NCBI GenBank assembly: GCA_038058095.1
Contig: JBBUBW010000044.1
Coordinates: 1 to 46,768, forward strand
Length of the DNA: 46,768 nucleotides
Direction of reading: 5' to 3'
Origin: Patescibacteria group bacterium
Lineage (GTDB): Bacteria; Patescibacteriota; Minisyncoccia; UBA6257; 2-01-FULL-56-20
Shown: piece after piece, positions 5,248 to 45,360 of the stretch
Numbering within the stretch: the stretch's first letter is position 1
Layout of the letters: each line of letters begins with the position of its first letter
The notes under the pieces: generated by a model
Told to the model about the DNA's origin: nothing
The model's input: only the letters and a program-made list of their open reading frames with translations
The model's database searches: none
Made by a program: the position numbers and the translations under genes

Positions 5248-8200
5248 CTAAACCACTATACTTATTAATCTCCCCGGCACAAAAACAATCTTCTTCGGCT
5301 TCGTGCCCTGAAGTTGCTCTTTCACTTTTTCACGAGCAAAAACTAATTTTTCCGCTTCCGCCTGCGTGATTCCCACTTCCACTTCCACACTATCCCTCAC
5401 TCTTCCGTTAATCTGGATAACTAAAGTAAATTTCTCGTCCTTAATCAATTTCGAATCATACTTCGGCCAACCGGAAACATGAATTGATTTTTTGTTTCCC
5501 AAAACTCCTTTCCAAATTTCTTCGGCCATATGCGGCGCAAAAGGCGCTAGCAATTTAACAAATATCTTATAGCTTTCAACCGATAACTTTTCGTGTTTCT
5601 CTACCTCGTTCAATAAAATCATCATCGCTGAAACCGCCGTGTTGTAATTCAACGTCTCAATATCTTCCGTCACTTTCTTAATAGTTTTATTCAGTAATCT
5701 TTCAAAATCTTTGCTTTCATTGTCTAACGTCTTACTTCTAACGTCTAACTTTTCAAAAAGTCGCCAGACTCTCTGAAGAAACCGCTCCACTCCCAAAATC
5801 CCCGAATCCCTAAAATCTCCACCTTGCTCAAAAGGCGCCAAAAACATCAGATACATCCTTAAAGTATCCGCCCCAAATTTTTCGATGTATTCGTCCGGAT
5901 TAATCACATTCCCCTTTGATTTCGACATCTTCGCTCCATCTTTAATCAATAGCCCATGTGCCCTAAACTTTTTCGCCGGCTCATCAAAATTAACCAATCC
6001 CCAATCATGAAAAACTTTAGCCAAGAACCTGACGTATAAAAGATGCAAAACAGAATGTTCTGCCCCTCCGGTATACAAATCAATCGGTAACCATTTTTTA
6101 AAAATACTTCTATTGACCTCAAAAATTGATTTTCTACTTTTGAATTTTAAATCGTCATTTTGATTTTTGATTTTTAAATTTTTAATTCCGAGGGCAAGAT
6201 ACCCGAGGTAATACCAAGCTGAATCAAGGAAAGTATCCGAAACATCCGTTTCTCTTCGAGCTTTTTCTTTGCACTTCGGGCATTTTACTTCATAAAAAGA
6301 TTTAACCGAAGCCAAAGGCGACTCCCCTGTTCCTCGCGGCCGAAAATCTTTCACTATCGGCAACTTCACCGGCAAATCTTTCTCTAACACCGCATACCAT
6401 CCCGGCATCTCTTTCTGGTCTCCTTTTCCCGCTTTCGCGCAATTTTCGCAATAAATCATTGGAATCGGCGGCCCCCAATACCTCTGCCTTGAAATCAACC
6501 AATCCCTCAATCTATATTGAATCTTCCTCTCCCCGCCCACAAATTTCGCAATCTCCCACTTCGCTTTCTCGGAATTCATACCATCAAACTTTCCGGAATT
6601 TATCATCGCGCCAGCATCAACATAACCCTGCGGCTCATAAATTTTCCCAACTTCATATAAAGCGATCGCCTTTTCGGCGCGGTTAAGCACTTCAAGCCAA
6701 TGTTCAACTCCTCCGCCCACCTTTCTAATTTCTTCTCGTAAAGTTTTTATGTCATACCACTCAAAAGTAAAATCTTCGTGGGTCTCAAGATTCGACTTTC
6801 CTTGCTTATTTCTATCAAGAATGGCCAAAAAATTAACGGCGAAAGAACGGCGATTAATATTTTTTTTGTCGTTATAATAATGGGAATAAAGAGAACCTAG
6901 AGAGATGAGGTTGATAATATCTTTATAACCAGTCTCCTCGGCAAGCTCTCTTCTTGCAGCATCTTCGAAACTTTCATCTCCCTCCTTTCCGCCTCCTACG
7001 AGCCACGTTGCCTTATCCTTCCATTTTAAGCCAAGAAATTTATTGCTCGCCTTATCATAACCAATTACTGTTACTCCTTGCACATATTGCTCGTTCGATC
7101 GAACCTCGCCAAAATCAGGCACCACTACCTCTCTAACAGATAAATTAAATTTCTTCGCAAACTCAAAATCACGCTCGTCGTGCGCAGGCACCGCCATAAT
7201 CGCTCCCGTGCCATACGAACCCAAAACATAATCCGCCACCCAGATTGGAATTTCTTCGTCATTCGCCGGATTAATCGCCTTCACCCCTTTTAACTCAACC
7301 CCCGTCTTGCCTCTACCTTCTGAAATTCTCTCTTCCTCGGATTTCTCTTTTACCTTTTCTATATATTTTTGAACCTCGGATTTGTTTAGAATTTCGGATT
7401 TCGGATTTCGGATTTCTTGTTCGAGCCACTTATTTTCAGGGGCGAGAACAAGATACGTTGCTCCAAAAAGCGTATCTGGCCGAGTCGTAAATACTTTTAT
7501 TGACGGCAAAAGCGCGTCCAAAATAGCCGGCTCTTCTTTGGCACAAAAATGTGGCTCTTTGGCAAATGTCTTAGTAAGAGGTACGCCAAATCTTGACGCC
7601 AAAAACTCTCCATCCGAAAATGGCACTACTGTATCTCCTAAATCAACGAGAACATCAAAAAAAGAGCAGTTCTTTTTAATAACATCAAATTTAAAGCCTT
7701 TTAGGGCAGCTTCAGTTACAGTCGGCCTATCTTTTTTATCCAAAAAATCACCGCTTGACGGAGTCGCAACTAAAACCACTTTTCCTAACTTTACTCCCCT
7801 CTCTAAAACTCTAAGCGCTACTATTCCTCCGAAAGAATGCCCCAAAATAGCTGTTTGCTCATCTAGCTTACAATTTTTGATAACATAATCCGCTTGTTCA
7901 TCATCGTTTGGCGCGCCTGCGCCAGGTAAAATAGGCACTACGACCTCGTAACCTTGCCCTTCAAGTTCGCCTTTAAGCCACATAAAAAAGTTTCGATCTA
8001 AATGACCGCCCTTACCATGAAGCAAGACGAATCTTTTTATTCCTAATTCTTTATTCTTAATTCTAAATTCAATCTCCGCTCCCTCCGACTTCCCAATCCA
8101 ATTCTCCTGCGCTATCTTAACACGCTCTGACCAGTCAAGATTTTTGAGATCCGCAAGTAAACGATCGGCATATTTCGTAATCCTAAAAAACCACTGCTCC

Positions 8201-8883
8201 AATTCTTTCTTAAAAACCTCCGCGCCACATCTCTCACAAACCCCTCCTCCAACCTTATTTTCTTCATTTTGAATTTTACCTTGTAATTTTACATTTTGAC
8301 TTTTGACTTTTGAATTATTGATAACCTGCTCATCCGCCAAAACCGTCTTGCACGAAGGGCACCAATTCACCGCCTGCTTTTTGCGGTAAGCCAAACCCTT
8401 TTTAAACATCTCGGCAAAAATCCACTGCGTCCACTTATAATATTCCGGGGCGTAAGTTTCCAAATGCTCATTCCAGGCAAAACCATTCCCAATCGAAGCC
8501 AATTGTTTATAAAATCTTTTCTCCGAAATTTTTGATTGCTTTGCCGGATGGGTCCCAATTTTCAAAGCATAGTTTTCGGAATGAATCCCAAATCCATCCA
8601 GCCCGATTGGCTCAAATACATCATTACCCTGCATCCGCTTAAACCGCCCATAAATATCCGCTCCTGTAAAAGCGTACATATTCCCGACATGCAACCCCTC
8701 CGCCGACGGATACGGGAACATCATCAAGTTATAAAACGGCTTCTTGCTCCGCCCACTGGCGGACTTTAAATTCGGCTTGCCCGTCCGAAGCCCTTTGGCG
8801 AAGGAGGGTTCATAGGTTCTCTCCTCTAGCCACTTACGTTGCCATTTGCGCTCAATCTTCGTAAAGTCGTATTTTTTAGACAT
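5248..8883 (-). CDS. leuS: Leucyl-tRNA synthetase, unusually long (1211 aa), carrying inserted alpha/beta serine-hydrolase and Nudix domains
   Basis: HVGN (HIGH) and KMSKS motifs; Zn module WCPSC...CERCG; CP1 editing motifs TTRPDT and GTGAIMAVPAHDERDFEFA; C-terminal tRNA-binding domain. Confidence 0.95.
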   Translation of the reverse strand: MSKKYDFTKIERKWQRKWLEERTYEPSFAKGLRTGKPNLKSASGRSKKPFYNLMMFPYPSAEGLHVGNMYAFTGADIYGRFKRMQGNDVFEPIGLDGFGIHSENYALKIGTHPAKQSKISEKRFYKQLASIGNGFAWNEHLETYAPEYYKWTQWIFAEMFKKGLAYRKKQAVNWCPSCKTVLADEQVINNSKVKSQNVKLQGKIQNEENKVGGGVCERCGAEVFKKELEQWFFRITKYADRLLADLKNLDWSERVKIAQENWIGKSEGAEIEFRIKNKELGIKRFVLLHGKGGHLDRNFFMWLKGELEGQGYEVVVPILPGAGAPNDDEQADYVIKNCKLDEQTAILGHSFGGIVALRVLERGVKLGKVVLVATPSSGDFLDKKDRPTVTEAALKGFKFDVIKKNCSFFDVLVDLGDTVVPFSDGEFLASRFGVPLTKTFAKEPHFCAKEEPAILDALLPSIKVFTTRPDTLFGATYLVLAPENKWLEQEIRNPKSEILNKSEVQKYIEKVKEKSEEERISEGRGKTGVELKGVKAINPANDEEIPIWVADYVLGSYGTGAIMAVPAHDERDFEFAKKFNLSVREVVVPDFGEVRSNEQYVQGVTVIGYDKASNKFLGLKWKDKATWLVGGGKEGDESFEDAARRELAEETGYKDIINLISLGSLYSHYYNDKKNINRRSFAVNFLAILDRNKQGKSNLETHEDFTFEWYDIKTLREEIRKVGGGVEHWLEVLNRAEKAIALYEVGKIYEPQGYVDAGAMINSGKFDGMNSEKAKWEIAKFVGGERKIQYRLRDWLISRQRYWGPPIPMIYCENCAKAGKGDQKEMPGWYAVLEKDLPVKLPIVKDFRPRGTGESPLASVKSFYEVKCPKCKEKARRETDVSDTFLDSAWYYLGYLALGIKNLKIKNQNDDLKFKSRKSIFEVNRSIFKKWLPIDLYTGGAEHSVLHLLYVRFLAKVFHDWGLVNFDEPAKKFRAHGLLIKDGAKMSKSKGNVINPDEYIEKFGADTLRMYLMFLAPFEQGGDFRDSGILGVERFLQRVWRLFEKLDVRSKTLDNESKDFERLLNKTIKKVTEDIETLNYNTAVSAMMILLNEVEKHEKLSVESYKIFVKLLAPFAPHMAEEIWKGVLGNKKSIHVSGWPKYDSKLIKDEKFTLVIQINGRVRDSVEVEVGITQAEAEKLVFAREKVKEQLQGTKPKKIVFVPGRLISIVV

Positions 8884-39371: not shown

Positions 39372-39893
39372 TCAAAAACTAAGTCTAGTTTCTACTACTC
39401 GGTATATCACAATCCCTGTCGCCACCGAAACATTCAAGGATTCTTTCCTACCTCGCATTGGAATTTCCAAAATCTTATCCGCTTTATCCAAAACCGACTT
39501 CGGTAAACCTTTCGTCTCTTCTCCAAAAACAAGGGCAAGATTTTTATTTTTTGCCGGATGATATTTAAAATACGGAATCGATTTTTTATCTTGCTCCACC
39601 GCCAAGATCTCATAACTGCCGCCAGCCAGCGTCCGTCCGTTGGCGTCCGCCCGCTGGCGGATCAATTTTTTATAAACCGCCCCGAAATTTTTAAAATATT
39701 CCCACGCCATCGTCCTCTCCGCTCCAAGCGCCACTTTTGAAAAATCTGCCCGAAATTTCCCAAATCGGTCTAGTGGTGTCGGCGTCACCCCAACCAGATA
39801 AATCTTTGAGGCGCCAGCGGCATCACAAGTGCGGAAAACCGACCCGACATTATATACGCTCCGAACATTATTTAAAACCACAACGATTTCCAT
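39372..39893 (-). CDS. SpoU/TrmH-family RNA 2'-O-methyltransferase
   Basis: NVGSVFRTCDAAG, LVFGEETKGL and ESLNVSVATGIVIY motifs. The start is trimmed to MEIVVVLNN. Confidence 0.8.
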   Translation of the reverse strand: MEIVVVLNNVRSVYNVGSVFRTCDAAGASKIYLVGVTPTPLDRFGKFRADFSKVALGAERTMAWEYFKNFGAVYKKLIRQRADANGRTLAGGSYEILAVEQDKKSIPYFKYHPAKNKNLALVFGEETKGLPKSVLDKADKILEIPMRGRKESLNVSVATGIVIYRVVETRLSF

Positions 39894-39903
39894 AAAAATA
39901 AAA

Positions 39904-39945
39904 TTACAACATTCTAATATTCTGCAGAATATTAGAATGTTGTAA
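39904..39945. repeat. Perfect 42-bp palindrome centred on CTGCAG
   Basis: TTACAACATTCTAATATTCTG|CAGAATATTAGAATGTTGTAA. On the minus strand it is followed by TTTTATTTTT. Confidence 0.9.
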
Positions 39946-39996: not shown

Positions 39997-40617
39997 TCAA
40001 CTCAAGCTAAATTCCTTAAGCTTTTCTCTTATAGCCTTGTCAGATACCTCGCATCCAAGCATATAATCCAGCGGCTCGCGATAATCAATGCCCTCAAAAT
40101 AGGCAAGCTGTGAACGGAACAACTTCTCATTAAACTCGTTTCCAAAAACTTCAGCCGTCCGGTCAGCAATCTGGCGAAGAGAATGGTAATCGCGTAATAT
40201 AAAAAAGAGGTCAACGTAGTCTTTCCATTTTGCCCGCTGACCAAGCGCGTACGCCTTCATCGCGGAAAGCGTAATCAAATCGGGCATCTTAATAAATTCA
40301 CGGTATTTCTCGGCGTAAGGAATTTCGTGCGGATAGTGAAAGAATGTCCATTTTACGCCGCGCACCAAGAGCGTGTACTGACCTTTTTCATTCCACAACT
40401 CTTTATCGATAGGTGAAAAATCCGCGATCGTTTTCCTAATCCGGATGTTTAAAAAAGGCTTTGTAGAAAAAAGATCAAAATCAATCGAACGCCGGTGGCC
40501 GATATGAAGAGCAACAGCAGTTCCACCTACCAAACTAAATGATCGAGAAAATTTTTTCAGTAATGGAAGCTGACTCCGCTGGACATTAGTTAGTATTTCA
40601 TCGTGCATACTTATCAA
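39997..40617 (-). CDS. AbiEii/DUF1814-like nucleotidyltransferase (putative toxin of an NTase-type TA pair)
   Basis: LVGGTAVALHIGHRRSIDFDLF motif. Confidence 0.65.
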   Translation of the reverse strand: MISMHDEILTNVQRSQLPLLKKFSRSFSLVGGTAVALHIGHRRSIDFDLFSTKPFLNIRIRKTIADFSPIDKELWNEKGQYTLLVRGVKWTFFHYPHEIPYAEKYREFIKMPDLITLSAMKAYALGQRAKWKDYVDLFFILRDYHSLRQIADRTAEVFGNEFNEKLFRSQLAYFEGIDYREPLDYMLGCEVSDKAIREKLKEFSLS

Positions 40618-40855
40618 AGTAAAGCCGAAAATAGTTGCGAATCTGCGGAAAGTAATTTGTTCGATCTCGAAATGCGTGGATGTTAAATATCTTAGCTACT
40701 CTTTTTATACCCATGATTTTAAAGAGCTCTTGCACATCCTCCCAATCACCGTAATTCAAAACTGCTTCCACTAAAGAAACGTCTCCCAGTTTATCGTAGT
40801 CTCTCGTGTACCAAACGAGATGCTTACGCCGAACGAGCTCTTGCGCGGGATTCAT
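40598..40855 (-). CDS. Small partner protein (85 aa) overlapping the NTase gene by 20 nt; putative antitoxin
   Basis: Translationally coupled to the NTase gene. Preceded by GTTTGTGGTATAAT with only 6 nt to the ATG. Confidence 0.5.
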   Translation of the reverse strand: MNPAQELVRRKHLVWYTRDYDKLGDVSLVEAVLNYGDWEDVQELFKIMGIKRVAKIFNIHAFRDRTNYFPQIRNYFRLYFDKYAR

Positions 40856-40975
40856 GCTTTAATTATACCACAAACTCAACCCCTAACCAACTCTCTCGAC
40901 CGAAAAACTAACCTGACGTTACAAGCACTCCTTGCGTTGTGCAAAATCAGAACTATTTCCATAAAGCCACTACAA

Positions 40976-41004
40976 CAAAAAACTCCCAGCCGAAAAGGCG
41001 GGAG
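40976..41004 (-). terminator. Rho-independent terminator immediately 3' of the DGR template repeat
   Basis: Minus strand: CTCCCGCC-ttttc-GGCTGGGAG followed by TTTTTTG. Confidence 0.7.
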
Positions 41005-41013
41005 AAATAAAAA

Positions 41014-41142
41014 GATTTGCGGAAGACGAACTCGTACTCAGGATTCCACTTGTTCGTAGGATTCGCCCAGTTGTCGTTAAGCCACAGACCGCCCTCGTTG
41101 CGTTCCAGCTTGAAGACGTTCGGATTGCCGGAAGAGTCGTTT
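41014..41142 (-). repeat. DGR template repeat (TR), adenine-rich copy
   Basis: Gap-free match to 41540-41668. All 18 mismatches are A in this copy on the minus strand. It is rich in AAC/AAT codons. Confidence 0.85.
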
Positions 41143-41433
41143 CTGTACGCTCGCCCGCCAAAGCCACCGGAGAGCGTGATTCGCGAAAATCTTCTCCCCT
41201 GAATTTTATTCGGTATCTCGCCCAAAACGGAAAAATCCGCTTGAACTTATACCCTAGGCGCGCGCACCAAGTATTTTTATTTTTTAGTTTTCGACACCCC
41301 TTGCTTCACGCCCGGTCTTTAAAATTCCAAGACCGGGAAGAGCAAAGTTTTTCACACGCGAGCCGTAAAACTGGATTCGGTAGCCGGAAGCCGTAACCGC
41401 CAGCGTATTCACCTAGTACCAAAAACATTGTAT

Positions 41434-41471
41434 CAAAAAAACGACGGCCTCGCACTTTTACGTGCGAGGCC
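41434..41471 (-). terminator. GC-rich hairpin plus U-tract after the DGR target gene
   Basis: GGCCTCGCAC-6 nt-GTGCGAGGCC followed by GTCGTTTTTTT on the minus strand. Confidence 0.8.
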
Positions 41472-41499
41472 TTAAAACAAAGTTCCAAGGGTCAAAGAA

Positions 41500-43434
41500 T
41501 CAACTGCCCGTCCTTTGTCGCTCACGCTCCAAAGAACGGGACTTGCGGAAGACGAACTCGTACTCAGGATCCCACTTGAACGCAGGATCCGCCCAGTAGC
41601 CGCCAAGCCACAGACCGCCCTCGCCGCGCTCCAGCTTGAAGACGTACGGATTGCCGGAAGAGCCGCAAATTTGCTTCATACCTATATATATCCACTCATC
41701 CATTGGCTGATCTGTGTATTTGAGACGATAACGCGGTCCGGCTTCAGCCGGGCAAAGTTCAAGGCCCAGCTCGTGAGCTCGTTCGTATGTTTGCTCGGTA
41801 GTTGCGGAATGAGCAAAACCTAAATCCGCTACCGTAAGGCGAACCAACGCCTCTTCTTCGACACTTTTTTGGGTTTCAAATTCTCGGCTCTCGAGCATAT
41901 CTTTGGCATAACTTGATATTTTTATTCCCGCCGCCCTTAACTCATCCATCAGTTCTTCGGCTGTCTTACCTCCAATTTCAACTTTTTCCTGCCGAATTTT
42001 CCTTTCCGGAAATTTAGTGTAAATGTGCTCCAGATTTTCCGGCAACTTATCAAAAATCCCCGGCTCCAGTCTTCCGACATAAGCTTTAGTCTTTTCTTTG
42101 ATATCGTCCGGAGTTCGCGCGATCTCGTCGGGGTCGCACCCAAACACAATCGGCATATCTGCTTCCGGATTACGCCCCGCGCGGAGTTCGGCAATCCTCG
42201 GATCTCTTTGATATCCAAACCCCTCAATCGCGCTATTAATTTCATATAAGAAAATTAAGTCGTCTTTCACAAGCGCTTCGCCCCGCGCCGTCTTTTTTTC
42301 AATCGCCGTCAAAATTTTCATATCGGCGGACTTTTTGCGATAGTTTTCCGCTCCCGGGAGCTCCCTCATCTTCGCTTCGGCGATTTCCGTCATATTTCCT
42401 TCAAGGTTTTGCTGATTATCTTCCACCCCCCTTACTTCGCCTATATTTTCCCCCTGCATCCGGATTGCAATTCTTGGAATAGTCGGCTTGCCTTGCCGGT
42501 CAAGAGTGTAATAAACATAAAAATCTCCGCCGTTAAGTTGGGTCTCGGCAGTGGCAAATCCTTTCGTGCACCAAGCCGTGCCTTTGTTTTGAAGCGAAGC
42601 CCAGAGCGCCGTCGGGTCCGTTCCTTTCTCATACCTCACCCACTTGCCTCTCGTCTCCTCTCGCATCTCCGGCGTAACCTCTCCGGCTTGTCTGATGCCT
42701 TCAACGTATTGTCTAGCGAAAGAAAGTTTGGCGAAGTTCGCCGCCTTTTCTTTGGTAATAAGCTGGTCGAGAGGAGCGCCGGCTTCTCCTTGCGCCGCTC
42801 TTAAACGCTCAAGCATCGCCGGGTCCTTACTGGCTTCGATTATTTGTTCAACATAAGCCAAAGCTCCTCGATCTATATCTGGAAAAAGCCGCGTGCTCCC
42901 CGGCGAACGTTTAGTGAATTCACCTTTATCTTTATCGTAATCGCCAAGCCCAAGCACATTGCGGAAAGCGTAGTAGCGAAACCAAGTCGGATAAGGTTCG
43001 TTTAAGTCGGAAAGGTATGATATCCAGTTATCTAAAGATTTTTCCAAATCTTGGACGGCAATCTCGCCTCTTTGCTCCAGCTCTTCTTCTCCGTAATGCG
43101 CCTCAACGCCCATCTCTCGCGCCGCCCGTTCTTCCACTCTCGCCGCTCCTTCAGCCATCTTGTCTTTATTCGGCCGCACGTATTTCTCCATCACCATCTC
43201 TCGAAGCAACGAAAGGGCGCGCGGGCGTGATTCTACGCCGAACATTTTTCTCTGCTGTTCTTTATTGGGATCAAGTGCCAAACGCTCTAGGCGATCAAGG
43301 TAATTTTGAATCCTCTCTTCTGGATCTTGGGGTATCTTTTCGCCCGTCCGTTTTTCGGTTCTTTTCGCAGCCGATTCTACCTCTTCGGCATTATGGAGGT
43401 CGTATTTCTGTTTCAAAAACTCCGGGTTCTCCAT
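41500..43434 (-). CDS. DGR target (variable) protein, 644 aa, with no signal peptide
   Basis: Long ORF whose last ~55 codons contain the VR (…SSGNPYVFKLERGEGGLWLGGYWADPAFKWDPEYEFVFRKS…). Confidence 0.8.
   Translation of the reverse strand: MENPEFLKQKYDLHNAEEVESAAKRTEKRTGEKIPQDPEERIQNYLDRLERLALDPNKEQQRKMFGVESRPRALSLLREMVMEKYVRPNKDKMAEGAARVEERAAREMGVEAHYGEEELEQRGEIAVQDLEKSLDNWISYLSDLNEPYPTWFRYYAFRNVLGLGDYDKDKGEFTKRSPGSTRLFPDIDRGALAYVEQIIEASKDPAMLERLRAAQGEAGAPLDQLITKEKAANFAKLSFARQYVEGIRQAGEVTPEMREETRGKWVRYEKGTDPTALWASLQNKGTAWCTKGFATAETQLNGGDFYVYYTLDRQGKPTIPRIAIRMQGENIGEVRGVEDNQQNLEGNMTEIAEAKMRELPGAENYRKKSADMKILTAIEKKTARGEALVKDDLIFLYEINSAIEGFGYQRDPRIAELRAGRNPEADMPIVFGCDPDEIARTPDDIKEKTKAYVGRLEPGIFDKLPENLEHIYTKFPERKIRQEKVEIGGKTAEELMDELRAAGIKISSYAKDMLESREFETQKSVEEEALVRLTVADLGFAHSATTEQTYERAHELGLELCPAEAGPRYRLKYTDQPMDEWIYIGMKQICGSSGNPYVFKLERGEGGLWLGGYWADPAFKWDPEYEFVFRKSRSLERERQRTGS
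41540..41668 (-). repeat. DGR variable repeat (VR) at the 3' end of the 644-aa ORF
   Basis: Counterpart of the TR. It carries G (12 sites) or T (6 sites) wherever the TR has a mismatching A. Confidence 0.85.
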
Positions 43435-43530
43435 GTGGATATACTAACCCAAAAATGAAAGATATTCCAAGTAGAAATACTGCTAAAAATATTCCTACGA
43501 TTACTCAAATAATCTGTATATCCGAAGTCG

Positions 43531-43590
43531 TCTGCCCGCCCCGTACTGAAATTTAGATCTCTTAGAGCTTTAGCTCTCCAAATTTCTAGT
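43531..43590. repeat. Direct repeat copy 1 (~60 nt, internally hairpin-forming); copy 2 at 43692-43753
   Basis: Both copies start with TCTGCCCGCCCCGTACTGAAATTT and end with CCAAATTTCTAGT. Confidence 0.8.
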
Positions 43591-43620
43591 TTCTATTTTC
43601 ATAATTGTATTGCTCATGAG

Positions 43621-43642: not shown

Positions 43643-43773
43643 TCTTATCTCTTCTAAAGGATTTTAATTTTTATTTGTATATTCGTACTTATCTGCCCGC
43701 CCCGTACTGAAATTTGGATATCCCAAAGAGTTTAGCTTTTCCAAATTTCTAGTATCGGGGTATTCTGGTAGCA

Positions 43774-45360
43774 CTATTGCGAATTCTGCGGACTCGGGCT
43801 TTCCGTCACAGCAAACCCGGCCGAAATATCCAAGCTCGTCCTGGAATAACTCTTATCTTTAGGTATTTCCGTCCAAGAGGCCTGATCAATTACACCCCCA
43901 GAGGCGCTATGTATAGTAATTGAGTTATTCGTATAGGCTAAAGTGCTAGATTTCGGCCATTGAACATCAGGAGCTACCGCTCCAGTATACCCCTCAATAT
44001 TCGCCAATAAAAAATATTTCCCCCGCTGAACAATTTTCCCATCTAACCACTTTACCGCAAAGAAATTAGATTCCACCCCATTAGAATTCTTTTTCTTTAT
44101 CGTCCACCCCGTTAAATCCACCGCCTCGCCTCCGGCGTTATAAATCTCGATAAACTCATAATCCGAAGAACTGCTCGACCCCGCCATCACCTCGCTTATT
44201 AAAATTTTCTGCTGGCTTTGATTTTGCGGAGGGGGCGGAGATTCTACCGGCGGAGTTGATATCGCCTGCGACGAGGTAGTCGAGCTCGTTTGAGTACTCG
44301 GCTGATTGGCCGTCCCCCCTCCGTTCGATTCAGAGTCGTCGCTCGAAGTCCCGCTAATTAAAACTAATTCCGAATTTTTTGCTTTAGGCGTCCCACCCAA
44401 AACCGAAGACGTGTGCCAATAAAAATCATTCAAATTTCTCTCCAACGTTTTCTTCTGATCATTTTCTCCGCCGAACCGTCCCCATCCGAAAGAAGCGTTC
44501 ACCTCGTCTACCAAATTGCAATTCGAATCAAAAAGTTTCAACCACTCTCCATTATTGGAAAGCGCTCCGGAATAAATTTTATTGGCGGAAATATTTGGCA
44601 CGGAGTTATCGTCCGTCCGCTCAAGCAATAAAAATTCCCCCGCCGACGAACCACTCGCGGAAATTTTTTCTCCATCTTCAAAAATAATTTTAATCTTCTC
44701 GCTCTGGTTTTTAATTTGCCAGCCCGCCAAACTAATTTCGCCAGAAGAATTATTTTTTATTTCCATCCACTCATCGTTCGAAGAATCTTTTCCTCCCATC
44801 CACGCAATCTCATTAAAAATAATCGCGCGGCTCAATCCGCCAACCGGCGAACCATCTGAAGAAAATGAACAATCTTTAAAAATATTTTCGGAACTTTTAT
44901 TGGCTGATGGCGTGTCCGTGCCTATCGAAACCGCCTTTTGGACCGCAGTTGGCTTTTTATTTTCACTCGCACCTAAATCTTTCTTTAATTCTGAAATTTT
45001 TCCACTCGCACCCGCCGCCGGCGCAACATTCTGCTGTCCAACTCTTCCCGAATCACTTTTCTTATTCAAATTTTGCGCCAAATCTCCAATTCCACCACTT
45101 AAATCACCGCCGCGAGCCAAATTATTTCCATTATTTGCCGTTAAATCCAGTTCGTAAATCGGTTTCGCGCTCTTGAAACCCAAAACATCCTCAAAAGTTT
45201 TATAAACTGCCGCCGAAAAATTTCCTAAAACGGAATTTTCGCCAGAAATTTTTCCGCCAAAAATCAAAACTGTCGCCAAAAAACCAGCCAAACCTAATCC
45301 AACAAAAAACTTCGGCTGTTTCCAAATTTTTTTCTTTTCGAAATTAAATTCCTCGTCCAT
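43774..45360 (-). CDS. Membrane-anchored protein with two lamin-tail domains (LTD)
   Basis: TM FFVGLGLAGFLATVLIF. LTD signatures are IIFNEIAWMG...DEWMEIKN...LAGWQI and ILISEVMAG...EFIEIYN...LTGWTI. The ATG at 45360 is preferred because TTGACA (45408-45413) lies upstream of it. Confidence 0.75.
   Translation of the reverse strand: MDEEFNFEKKKIWKQPKFFVGLGLAGFLATVLIFGGKISGENSVLGNFSAAVYKTFEDVLGFKSAKPIYELDLTANNGNNLARGGDLSGGIGDLAQNLNKKSDSGRVGQQNVAPAAGASGKISELKKDLGASENKKPTAVQKAVSIGTDTPSANKSSENIFKDCSFSSDGSPVGGLSRAIIFNEIAWMGGKDSSNDEWMEIKNNSSGEISLAGWQIKNQSEKIKIIFEDGEKISASGSSAGEFLLLERTDDNSVPNISANKIYSGALSNNGEWLKLFDSNCNLVDEVNASFGWGRFGGENDQKKTLERNLNDFYWHTSSVLGGTPKAKNSELVLISGTSSDDSESNGGGTANQPSTQTSSTTSSQAISTPPVESPPPPQNQSQQKILISEVMAGSSSSSDYEFIEIYNAGGEAVDLTGWTIKKKNSNGVESNFFAVKWLDGKIVQRGKYFLLANIEGYTGAVAPDVQWPKSSTLAYTNNSITIHSASGGVIDQASWTEIPKDKSYSRTSLDISAGFAVTESPSPQNSQ

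Follow-up and report, generated by a model that had tools for sequence, protein, structure and literature searches.

We describe a DGR cassette from a Patescibacteria genome in which the target gene is accompanied by its own TR RNA gene, and in which neither a reverse transcriptase (RT) nor an avd gene is found in cis. The window, the whole stretch of DNA analysed here, is a contig of 46,768 nucleotides with a GC content of 43.8% and a complement of housekeeping genes typical of Patescibacteria/CPR. We consider it reasonably probable that this is a non-autonomous cassette, on which an RT-Avd pair encoded elsewhere acts in trans. According to this model the DGR RNA would be transcribed from its own promoter and bound by an RT-Avd pair that is encoded either in another part of the same genome (>41 kb / 19 kb from the cassette) or by a mobile element. 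This pair would recognise the leader, which is conserved, together with the stem-loop 3' of the TR; copying of the TR would then yield adenine-mutagenised cDNA, which would replace the VR 400 nt upstream. The first-pass annotation of this DNA had offered a trans-acting arrangement, an orphaned cassette and a non-canonical partner enzyme as three possible explanations, and it is the first of these that the adenine-specific turnover of the VR and the co-evolution of TR and VR favour.

On the minus strand the target gene with its VR is followed in turn by a terminator, a leader, the TR, a terminator-like hairpin and a DUF6922/AbiEii gene pair (Table 1). The target gene ends in its own terminator, as had been read from the sequence, with a stem of 10 bp (8 of them GC) ahead of the T-tract. 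The terminator-like hairpin noted directly after the TR (CTCCCGCC-TTTTC-GGCTGGGAG-TTTTTTG, 40976-41004) was recovered by RNAfold as a bulged stem of 8-9 bp, having been missed in a terminator scan because of its one-base bulge. We read this hairpin and its U-tract as a putative intrinsic terminator, and by analogy with Bordetella phage BPP-1 it is likely to be an Avd-binding stem-loop. The 11-bp hairpin that follows the VR is conserved in two related loci (L070 and L071), and is by position the counterpart of the BPP-1 target-site hairpin, whose role it may share. Short tandem repeats of the CTTTGA type (8-9 nt) lie between the target stop/post-VR hairpin and the terminator, at around 41476-41500 in the window, and are seen at the equivalent position in all loci of the family, with up to about ten copies in one of them (L049). 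An element of about 85 nt occurs twice, 163 nt apart (43512-43593 and 43673-43756), between the lamin-tail-domain (LTD) gene and the target gene, each copy with an internal inverted repeat, GAAATTTGGA...TCCAAATTTC. Elsewhere in the window, the leucyl-tRNA synthetase ORF (1211 aa, 5248-8883, minus strand) has embedded Pfam alpha/beta-hydrolase (aa 285-388) and NUDIX (aa 620-720) domains.

Table 1. Features of the RT-less DGR cassette and its immediate surroundings, in the order in which they are met along the minus strand.
Feature	Positions	Strand	Basis or remark
DGR target ORF, 644 aa	41500-43434	-	Pfam-less family
VR, 129 nt, 3' end of target ORF	41540-41668	-	TR/VR comparison
Invariant VR 3' end TCCTGAGTACGAGTTCGTCTTCCGCAA, IMH-like	41543-41569	-	TR counterpart 41017-41043; putative IMH role
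Post-VR hairpin, 11 bp, CCCGTTCTTTG / CAAAGGACGGG	41507-41540	-	Within end of coding region
Target-gene intrinsic terminator	41435-41471	-	Stem 41446-41471 and T-tract
Predicted extended -10 promoter TGATACAAT	41427-41435	-	For TR RNA
Structured 5' leader of DGR RNA, six helices	41143-41420	-	Alignment and covariation
Lineage-specific stem-loop in leader helix 3, CCCGGTCTT/AAGACCGGG	41309-41338	-	Sequence and covariation
TR	41014-41142	-	Repeat of VR, 526 nt downstream
Conserved post-TR motif TTTTTATTT, bulged hairpin (40983-41004) and U-tract (40976-40982)	40976-41013	-	RNAfold
SpoU 5'-end remnant copy	40897-40965	-	Weak: 71% nt identity, E 0.002
DUF6922-like 85-aa gene and AbiEii nucleotidyltransferase	39997-40855	-	Pfam; neighbour, outside DGR

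The stretch of about 290 nt ahead of the TR had been described as a non-coding spacer. Alignment and covariation lead us to replace this description, and indicate a leader RNA, structured and conserved, for which a promoter of its own is predicted. Most of the 20 TR-bearing loci have an extended -10 box 7-9 nt ahead of a 5' end that is conserved, and most loci of the family have a consensus box of the TGnTAnAAT type at the equivalent position. The leader, of about 280 nt, is alignable across 20 loci (the window and 19 others) and folds into six helices; of the 39 pairs in these, compensatory changes are seen in 32. The proportion of leader cells that are paired is 92.5%, compared with 39-51% in slid controls; the covariation score is 0.70, against 0.11-0.20 in the controls, and none of 500 shuffles matched the observed values. 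Compensatory changes keep the helices within the RT-less clade as well, and helix 4 (41256-41265 with 41147-41156) ends 4 nt before the TR. The second hairpin that had been noticed near 41309-41338 can be read directly from the sequence; as to its meaning, it is a lineage-specific insertion in leader helix 3, where it covaries among the window and three related loci (L070, L071 and L010). A 60-aa ORF in the former spacer is located within the structured RNA and has no Pfam match, and Rfam returned no match at E <= 1 for 40800-41700. Promoter, leader, TR and terminator/Avd-binding hairpin would together make up a DGR RNA gene of about 445 nt, complete and transcribed on its own.

When metagenomes were scanned with the 5' motif of the leader, at least 119 sites came up. 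Of the 80 loci returned, the majority have avd-RT linked to them and target proteins of another kind, which places the RNA in a large CPR DGR clade. Among these 80 metagenome loci, no RT-linked cassette had a leader closely like that of the window. A 'master' RT-linked cassette was sought by its leader, and the metagenome matches covered only the first ~54 nt of the window RNA. The viral contigs scanned had neither the type-1 leader motif nor the 3' end of the window's TR.

The absence of an RT gene, which had been claimed for the whole of the 46.8-kb window from its open reading frames, was confirmed with profile searches. Pfam found no RVT_1 domain in any window ORF of at least 150 aa, and family HMMs, built from 13 RTs and nine Avds of related loci, gave only noise (best E 8.6) against six-frame window fragments of at least 25 aa. 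The DGR-clade RT (LGxxxSQ ... YADD) that is present in 13 related loci is absent from the cassette, and Avd is HMM-negative in the window, while bAvd (PF22296) is found in related loci. One RT candidate, a 379-codon open frame cut by the window end, was rejected, as Pfam identifies it as a class II ribonucleotide reductase (RNR). The same locus is found in sibling contigs from Hainich groundwater metagenomes, including contigs of 84, 28, 27 and 18 kb, and these allowed us to look directly beyond the window, where an RT, according to the first-pass annotation, would speak against its reading. Neither an intact nor a decayed RT or avd gene is present in the window or in the 13.7 kb past its end on the 84-kb contig, which hold the rest of the RNR gene, small ORFs, RNase T, an NTP transferase, FtsX/ABC and ATP synthase genes; the 12.5 kb beyond the RNR gene on this contig contain housekeeping genes only, with no RT or avd. 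Window and sibling sequence together thus give an RT-free stretch of about 60 kb. The proposed trans RT was not found in the part of this genome that was covered, namely the window and the 13.7 kb of sibling sequence. Exact protein matches on record were found for GAPDH and the 85-aa protein, and for neither the target nor the LTD protein.

Homologues of the target protein number more than 1,400 in many Patescibacteria lineages, with identities of 65-79% over 98% of their length, and none of them has a Pfam domain. We surveyed 51 loci of this family from species-representative genomes. In 13 of the 51 (L011, L012, L015, L017, L020, L021, L029, L033, L040, L044, L045, L046 and L054) the target is followed by about 330 nt, the TR, the hairpin, a convergent avd on the opposite strand and then the RT, with Pfam confirming bAvd PF22296 and RVT_1. 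This order is the TR-(avd)-RT "B3" architecture, to which Wu et al. (2018, PMC5758913) assign 90% of the DGRs in CPR bacteria. Where this order continues from the TR into an opposite-strand avd and an RT, the window has the SpoU remnant and the DUF6922/AbiEii genes after the hairpin at 40983-41004. About 17 of the 51 loci have long flanks with neither TR nor RT, and their targets are therefore remote or silent. In one near-complete genome two target paralogues lie on a single 1.08-Mb contig (L006 and L008), and TR, avd and RT are absent within 10 kb of each; the L008 copy ends in a TR-like C-terminus that is rich in Asn/AAC, and carries a second copy of the start of the mnmA-like (tRNA_Me_trans) gene next to it. 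Several metagenome loci have a DGR RT split into two adjacent ORFs (L101/L134, L103/L120, L111, L123, L135 and L140); these could be pseudogenes, sequencing errors or cases of recoding, and the DGR RT of Trichodesmium has been reported as stop-codon-interrupted (PMC4143802).

A hairpin and U-tract directly 3' of the TR were found in all 19 of the TR-bearing loci that were folded and in 41 of 47 metagenome loci, its outer pairs conserved and its inner pairs covarying freely; the hairpin was folded in each sequence separately, since RNAalifold on a MAFFT alignment gave no pairs because of misaligned stems. A TR bounded by a terminator is therefore the family norm. The stand-alone, terminator-bounded TR of the first-pass annotation is thus real as a unit without RT or avd in cis, but its bounding does not set it apart, and is shared with the RT-linked B3 loci. 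The closest relatives of the window locus (L070, L010, L071 and L072) also have no avd or RT after the hairpin, the place (40.0-40.9 kb in the window) at which the first-pass annotation had asked whether an RT once lay; these four loci are on short contigs, and an RT could still lie a few kb further downstream in them. A DUF6922 gene follows the TR hairpin in L070, L072 and probably L010, as it does in the window, and L070 and L072 share the order RNR-LTD-target-DUF6922 with the window, with RNR proteins that are only 80-83% identical. Three further loci (L037, L110 and L136) contain intact RT-less units. Synteny with RT-linked relatives gave no date for an RT deletion, the flanking genes being unshared beyond the closest clade. 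In L072 (5722-5870) the TR and leader are deleted, and the TR 3' motif and hairpin are kept just before DUF6922; judged by this remnant, L072 is a decay intermediate of a window-type cassette.

The differences between TR and VR in the window are adenine-specific. All 13 mismatches in the last 120 nt of the repeat, where the TR has 30 adenines, are adenines in the TR and G or T in the VR; by our own arithmetic the chance that 13 of 13 mismatches fall at TR adenines is <1e-7. In the frame of the VR, which encodes residues ~590-634 of the 644-aa ORF, the TR has 6 AAC and 3 AAT codons. The 27 nt at the VR 3' end (41543-41569) are the same in TR and VR, up to an A/G difference at 41542, and their adenines are never changed. 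A comparison with the sibling L062 highlights recent turnover of the VR: of 20 differences in 16,171 aligned nt, 19 are in the VR, all at TR-A sites, and at five VR sites the two alleles carry two different non-A bases, giving three states. The TR, the leader and both hairpins are identical in these two genomes, and the TR does not vary among the sibling contigs. The VR was seen in two alleles only, one of them fixed across several wells and years, which suggests that activity is rare or episodic. In the LTD gene a block at 44408-44920 is 84% identical between the window and the Hainich loci L001/L061, with flanks at >99%, and identical in L062; this block looks like recombination or a second variable region.

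Over longer divergence, TR and VR have changed together. We compared four RT-less lineages (the window, L070, L071 and L010), in which the mismatches fall at TR adenines in 13/13, 16/16, 20/20 and 14/17 cases, respectively. At the non-A positions where the TRs of these lineages differ from each other, the VR follows its own TR at 63 of 64. RecA-type gene conversion would also wipe out the differences at A sites, and we therefore infer that RT-mediated homing went on after the four lineages split.

These observations bear directly on the best-surviving alternative, that avd and RT were deleted from a cassette that is now dead, with the TR/VR pattern and the two VR alleles as relics. The lack of RT and avd at the locus, the stability of one VR allele across many samples and the existence of decayed cassettes in the family (avd is truncated in L049, L058 retains a piece of the RT, some fragments consist of the leader alone, and the TR is deleted in L072) are all consistent with such an orphan. 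Against it, two genomes that both lack the RT differ by 19 changes in the VR and by one in 16 kb of flank, and the RT-less DUF6922 junction is common to lineages whose RNR proteins are 80-83% identical. Furthermore, the co-variation of TR and VR at 63 of 64 non-A sites leaves no sign of non-A decay, and compensatory changes maintain the leader helices inside the RT-less clade. We regard a dead orphan as unlikely, though deserving of more weight than the explanations that follow.

A variant of service in trans is that the genome has no DGR RT at all, and that the TR RNA gene is a 'satellite' that awaits an RT-Avd pair brought in by a phage or mobile element, so that activity would be episodic. 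Diversification would then take place only at encounters with RT-Avd, which fits one fixed VR allele together with one fully rewritten sibling. Among IMG/VR contigs classed as viral, six loci (L195-L200) carry avd(-)-RT(+) cassettes of the CPR DGR family, with RTs <=65% identical to the RT of L040; RT-Avd cassettes on contigs called viral make a mobile supplier possible. We give this variant a slim chance. We are similarly doubtful that the avd-RT pair is intact in some cells or relatives, at the locus or elsewhere, and that VR alleles spread from these by homologous recombination. Structural variants with intact RT have been reported at incomplete DGR loci of Thiohalocapsa (PMC10907252), and the LTD gene 1 kb away, with its recombination-like divergent block between strains, would be in keeping with such exchange; however, every independent assembly has the RT-less form, and no difference is met in the VR flanks until the first and last mutable adenine are reached, which argues against import of the VR from another strain.

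The genes after the TR are those that the first-pass annotation had named. The 206-aa ORF matches AbiEii with 40.9 bits against a cut-off of 22.5, and the 85-aa ORF has a weak match to DUF6922 (E 3.6e-4, below the Pfam cut-off), with orthologues in L070 and L072 that carry PF21956. The DUF6922-like and AbiEii genes form a toxin-antitoxin-type module. AbiEii proteins belong to the NTP transferases of the toxin type; they are not polymerases that copy a template. The 5' end of SpoU is duplicated on either side of this module (39832-39896 and 40901-40965; 71% nt identity, MEIVVVLNNVRS vs MEIVLILHNARS), which suggests that the module was inserted after the TR unit. In L070 an N-terminal fragment of SpoU lies just upstream of the target gene, and in the window a perfect 42-nt palindrome, TTACAACATTCTAATATTCTG / CAGAATATTAGAATGTTGTAA, is located between AbiEii and SpoU (39904-39945). 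The proposal that the adjacent nucleotidyltransferase, with DUF6922, replaces the RT as a non-canonical partner draws on the recurrence of DUF6922 after the TR hairpin in the window, L070, L072 and probably L010, but this co-occurrence is explained by their shared RNR-LTD-target synteny. The RT-less units L071, L037, L110 and L136 have different neighbours, and the apparently later insertion of the module and the known chemistry of AbiEii also speak against a partnership, which we think very improbable. Because the other RT-less units lack AbiEii, we regard this gene, on its genomic distribution, as a syntenic neighbour of the DGR and no partner. The least credible explanation is an assembly error at the TR/VR repeat, by collapse or chimera, through which the RT was lost or the VR allele arose: although several short contigs do break within the TR, the gene order is identical in at least six independent assemblies from different samples, including the 84-, 28- and 27-kb contigs, which excludes the mis-assembly that the first reading had flagged, and the window VR has bases present in neither the TR nor the other allele.

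The residues encoded by the VR lie near the C-terminus of the target protein. The target C-termini share one scaffold, with the variable residues exactly at the TR Asn-codon sites. A model of the full-length target reached a pLDDT of 78.8, and the C-terminal 166 residues modelled alone a pLDDT of 95.9; the best PDB matches of the latter model are all C-type lectin CRDs, though weak (E 0.024, probability 0.91, TM 0.37-0.44), and the C-terminal ~165 aa may be C-type-lectin-like in the predicted structure. The target has no Pfam match and no PDB sequence match, and a fold search with the full-length protein gave no match for the N-terminal ~470 residues. If private TR RNA genes can be served in trans, a very widespread and highly conserved Patescibacteria protein of 640 aa would carry a hypervariable ligand-binding tip. 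Service in trans would also mean that one RT-Avd pair could drive several independent template/target pairs, that DGR activity in small CPR genomes is under-counted, and that the RNA elements sufficient for recruitment can be read from a comparison of RT-linked with RT-less units, namely the ~280-nt leader and the 3' stem-loop.

DGRs, the B3 layout, remote VRs and incomplete loci are already known. In the literature consulted, we found no description of an intact private TR RNA gene without RT and Avd that is kept across diverged lineages with signs of continued homing, nor of the structured leader. Surveys of DGRs take the RT as their starting point and examine the surrounding DNA for repeats, a design that passes over template units without an RT; as Roux et al. 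(2021) themselves note, DGRs with a VR away from the RT escape their approach (PMC8144416). The window cassette resembles the CPR B3 DGRs (PMC5758913) in its target family, in its promoter-leader-TR-hairpin unit, in the adenine-specific TR/VR differences and in the post-VR hairpin. The B3 loci continue after the hairpin with convergent avd and RT, whereas in the window both are absent and have left no remnants.

Action of the RT machinery far from its own gene is established by the remote-target DGRs of Treponema, Legionella and Trichodesmium (PMC5758913, PMC4143802), and in the last of these the TR RNA is transcribed separately and abundantly, from a promoter of its own (PMC5758913, PMC4143802). 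In these systems the TR has stayed next to the RT, and it is the VRs alone that are distant; in the window the TR RNA gene is itself far from any RT, and it travels with its target. The incomplete DGR loci of Thiohalocapsa PB-PSB1 (Dore et al., 2024, PMC10907252) likewise combine missing components with diversification, for which an 'RT and/or TR encoded elsewhere' acting in trans has been proposed (PMC10907252). The Thiohalocapsa VRs match the TR of another, complete locus, or have variants with an intact RT, while the window has a private and intact TR RNA gene that is shared by diverged lineages.

At the level of the RNA, the closest comparison is with BPP-1, in which RNA on both sides of the TR wraps the RT-Avd complex and an Avd-binding stem-loop lies just 3' of the TR (10.1101/2023.10.23.563531). 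The TR of the BPP-1 DGR RNA (avd 3' end-TR-Sp; PMC6182149) is flanked by RNA elements, as it is in the window. The bulged stem-loop 3' of the window's TR takes the position of the BPP-1 Avd-binding stem-loop (10.1101/2023.10.23.563531), and the duplex that abuts the 5' end of the TR is comparable in position to the cPRT-stop duplex of BPP-1. The window RNA differs in having most of its structured part (about 280 nt) 5' of the TR and an apparent end at the U-tract that directly follows the stem-loop, without the 140-nt Sp region of BPP-1. The arrangement that we propose may also be likened, as a functional analogy only, to SINEs that use LINE enzymes and to ORF-less group II introns, in which the RNA keeps its recognition elements and the RT is encoded elsewhere. 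The window cassette differs in that it does not copy itself to new sites and would rewrite one fixed target.
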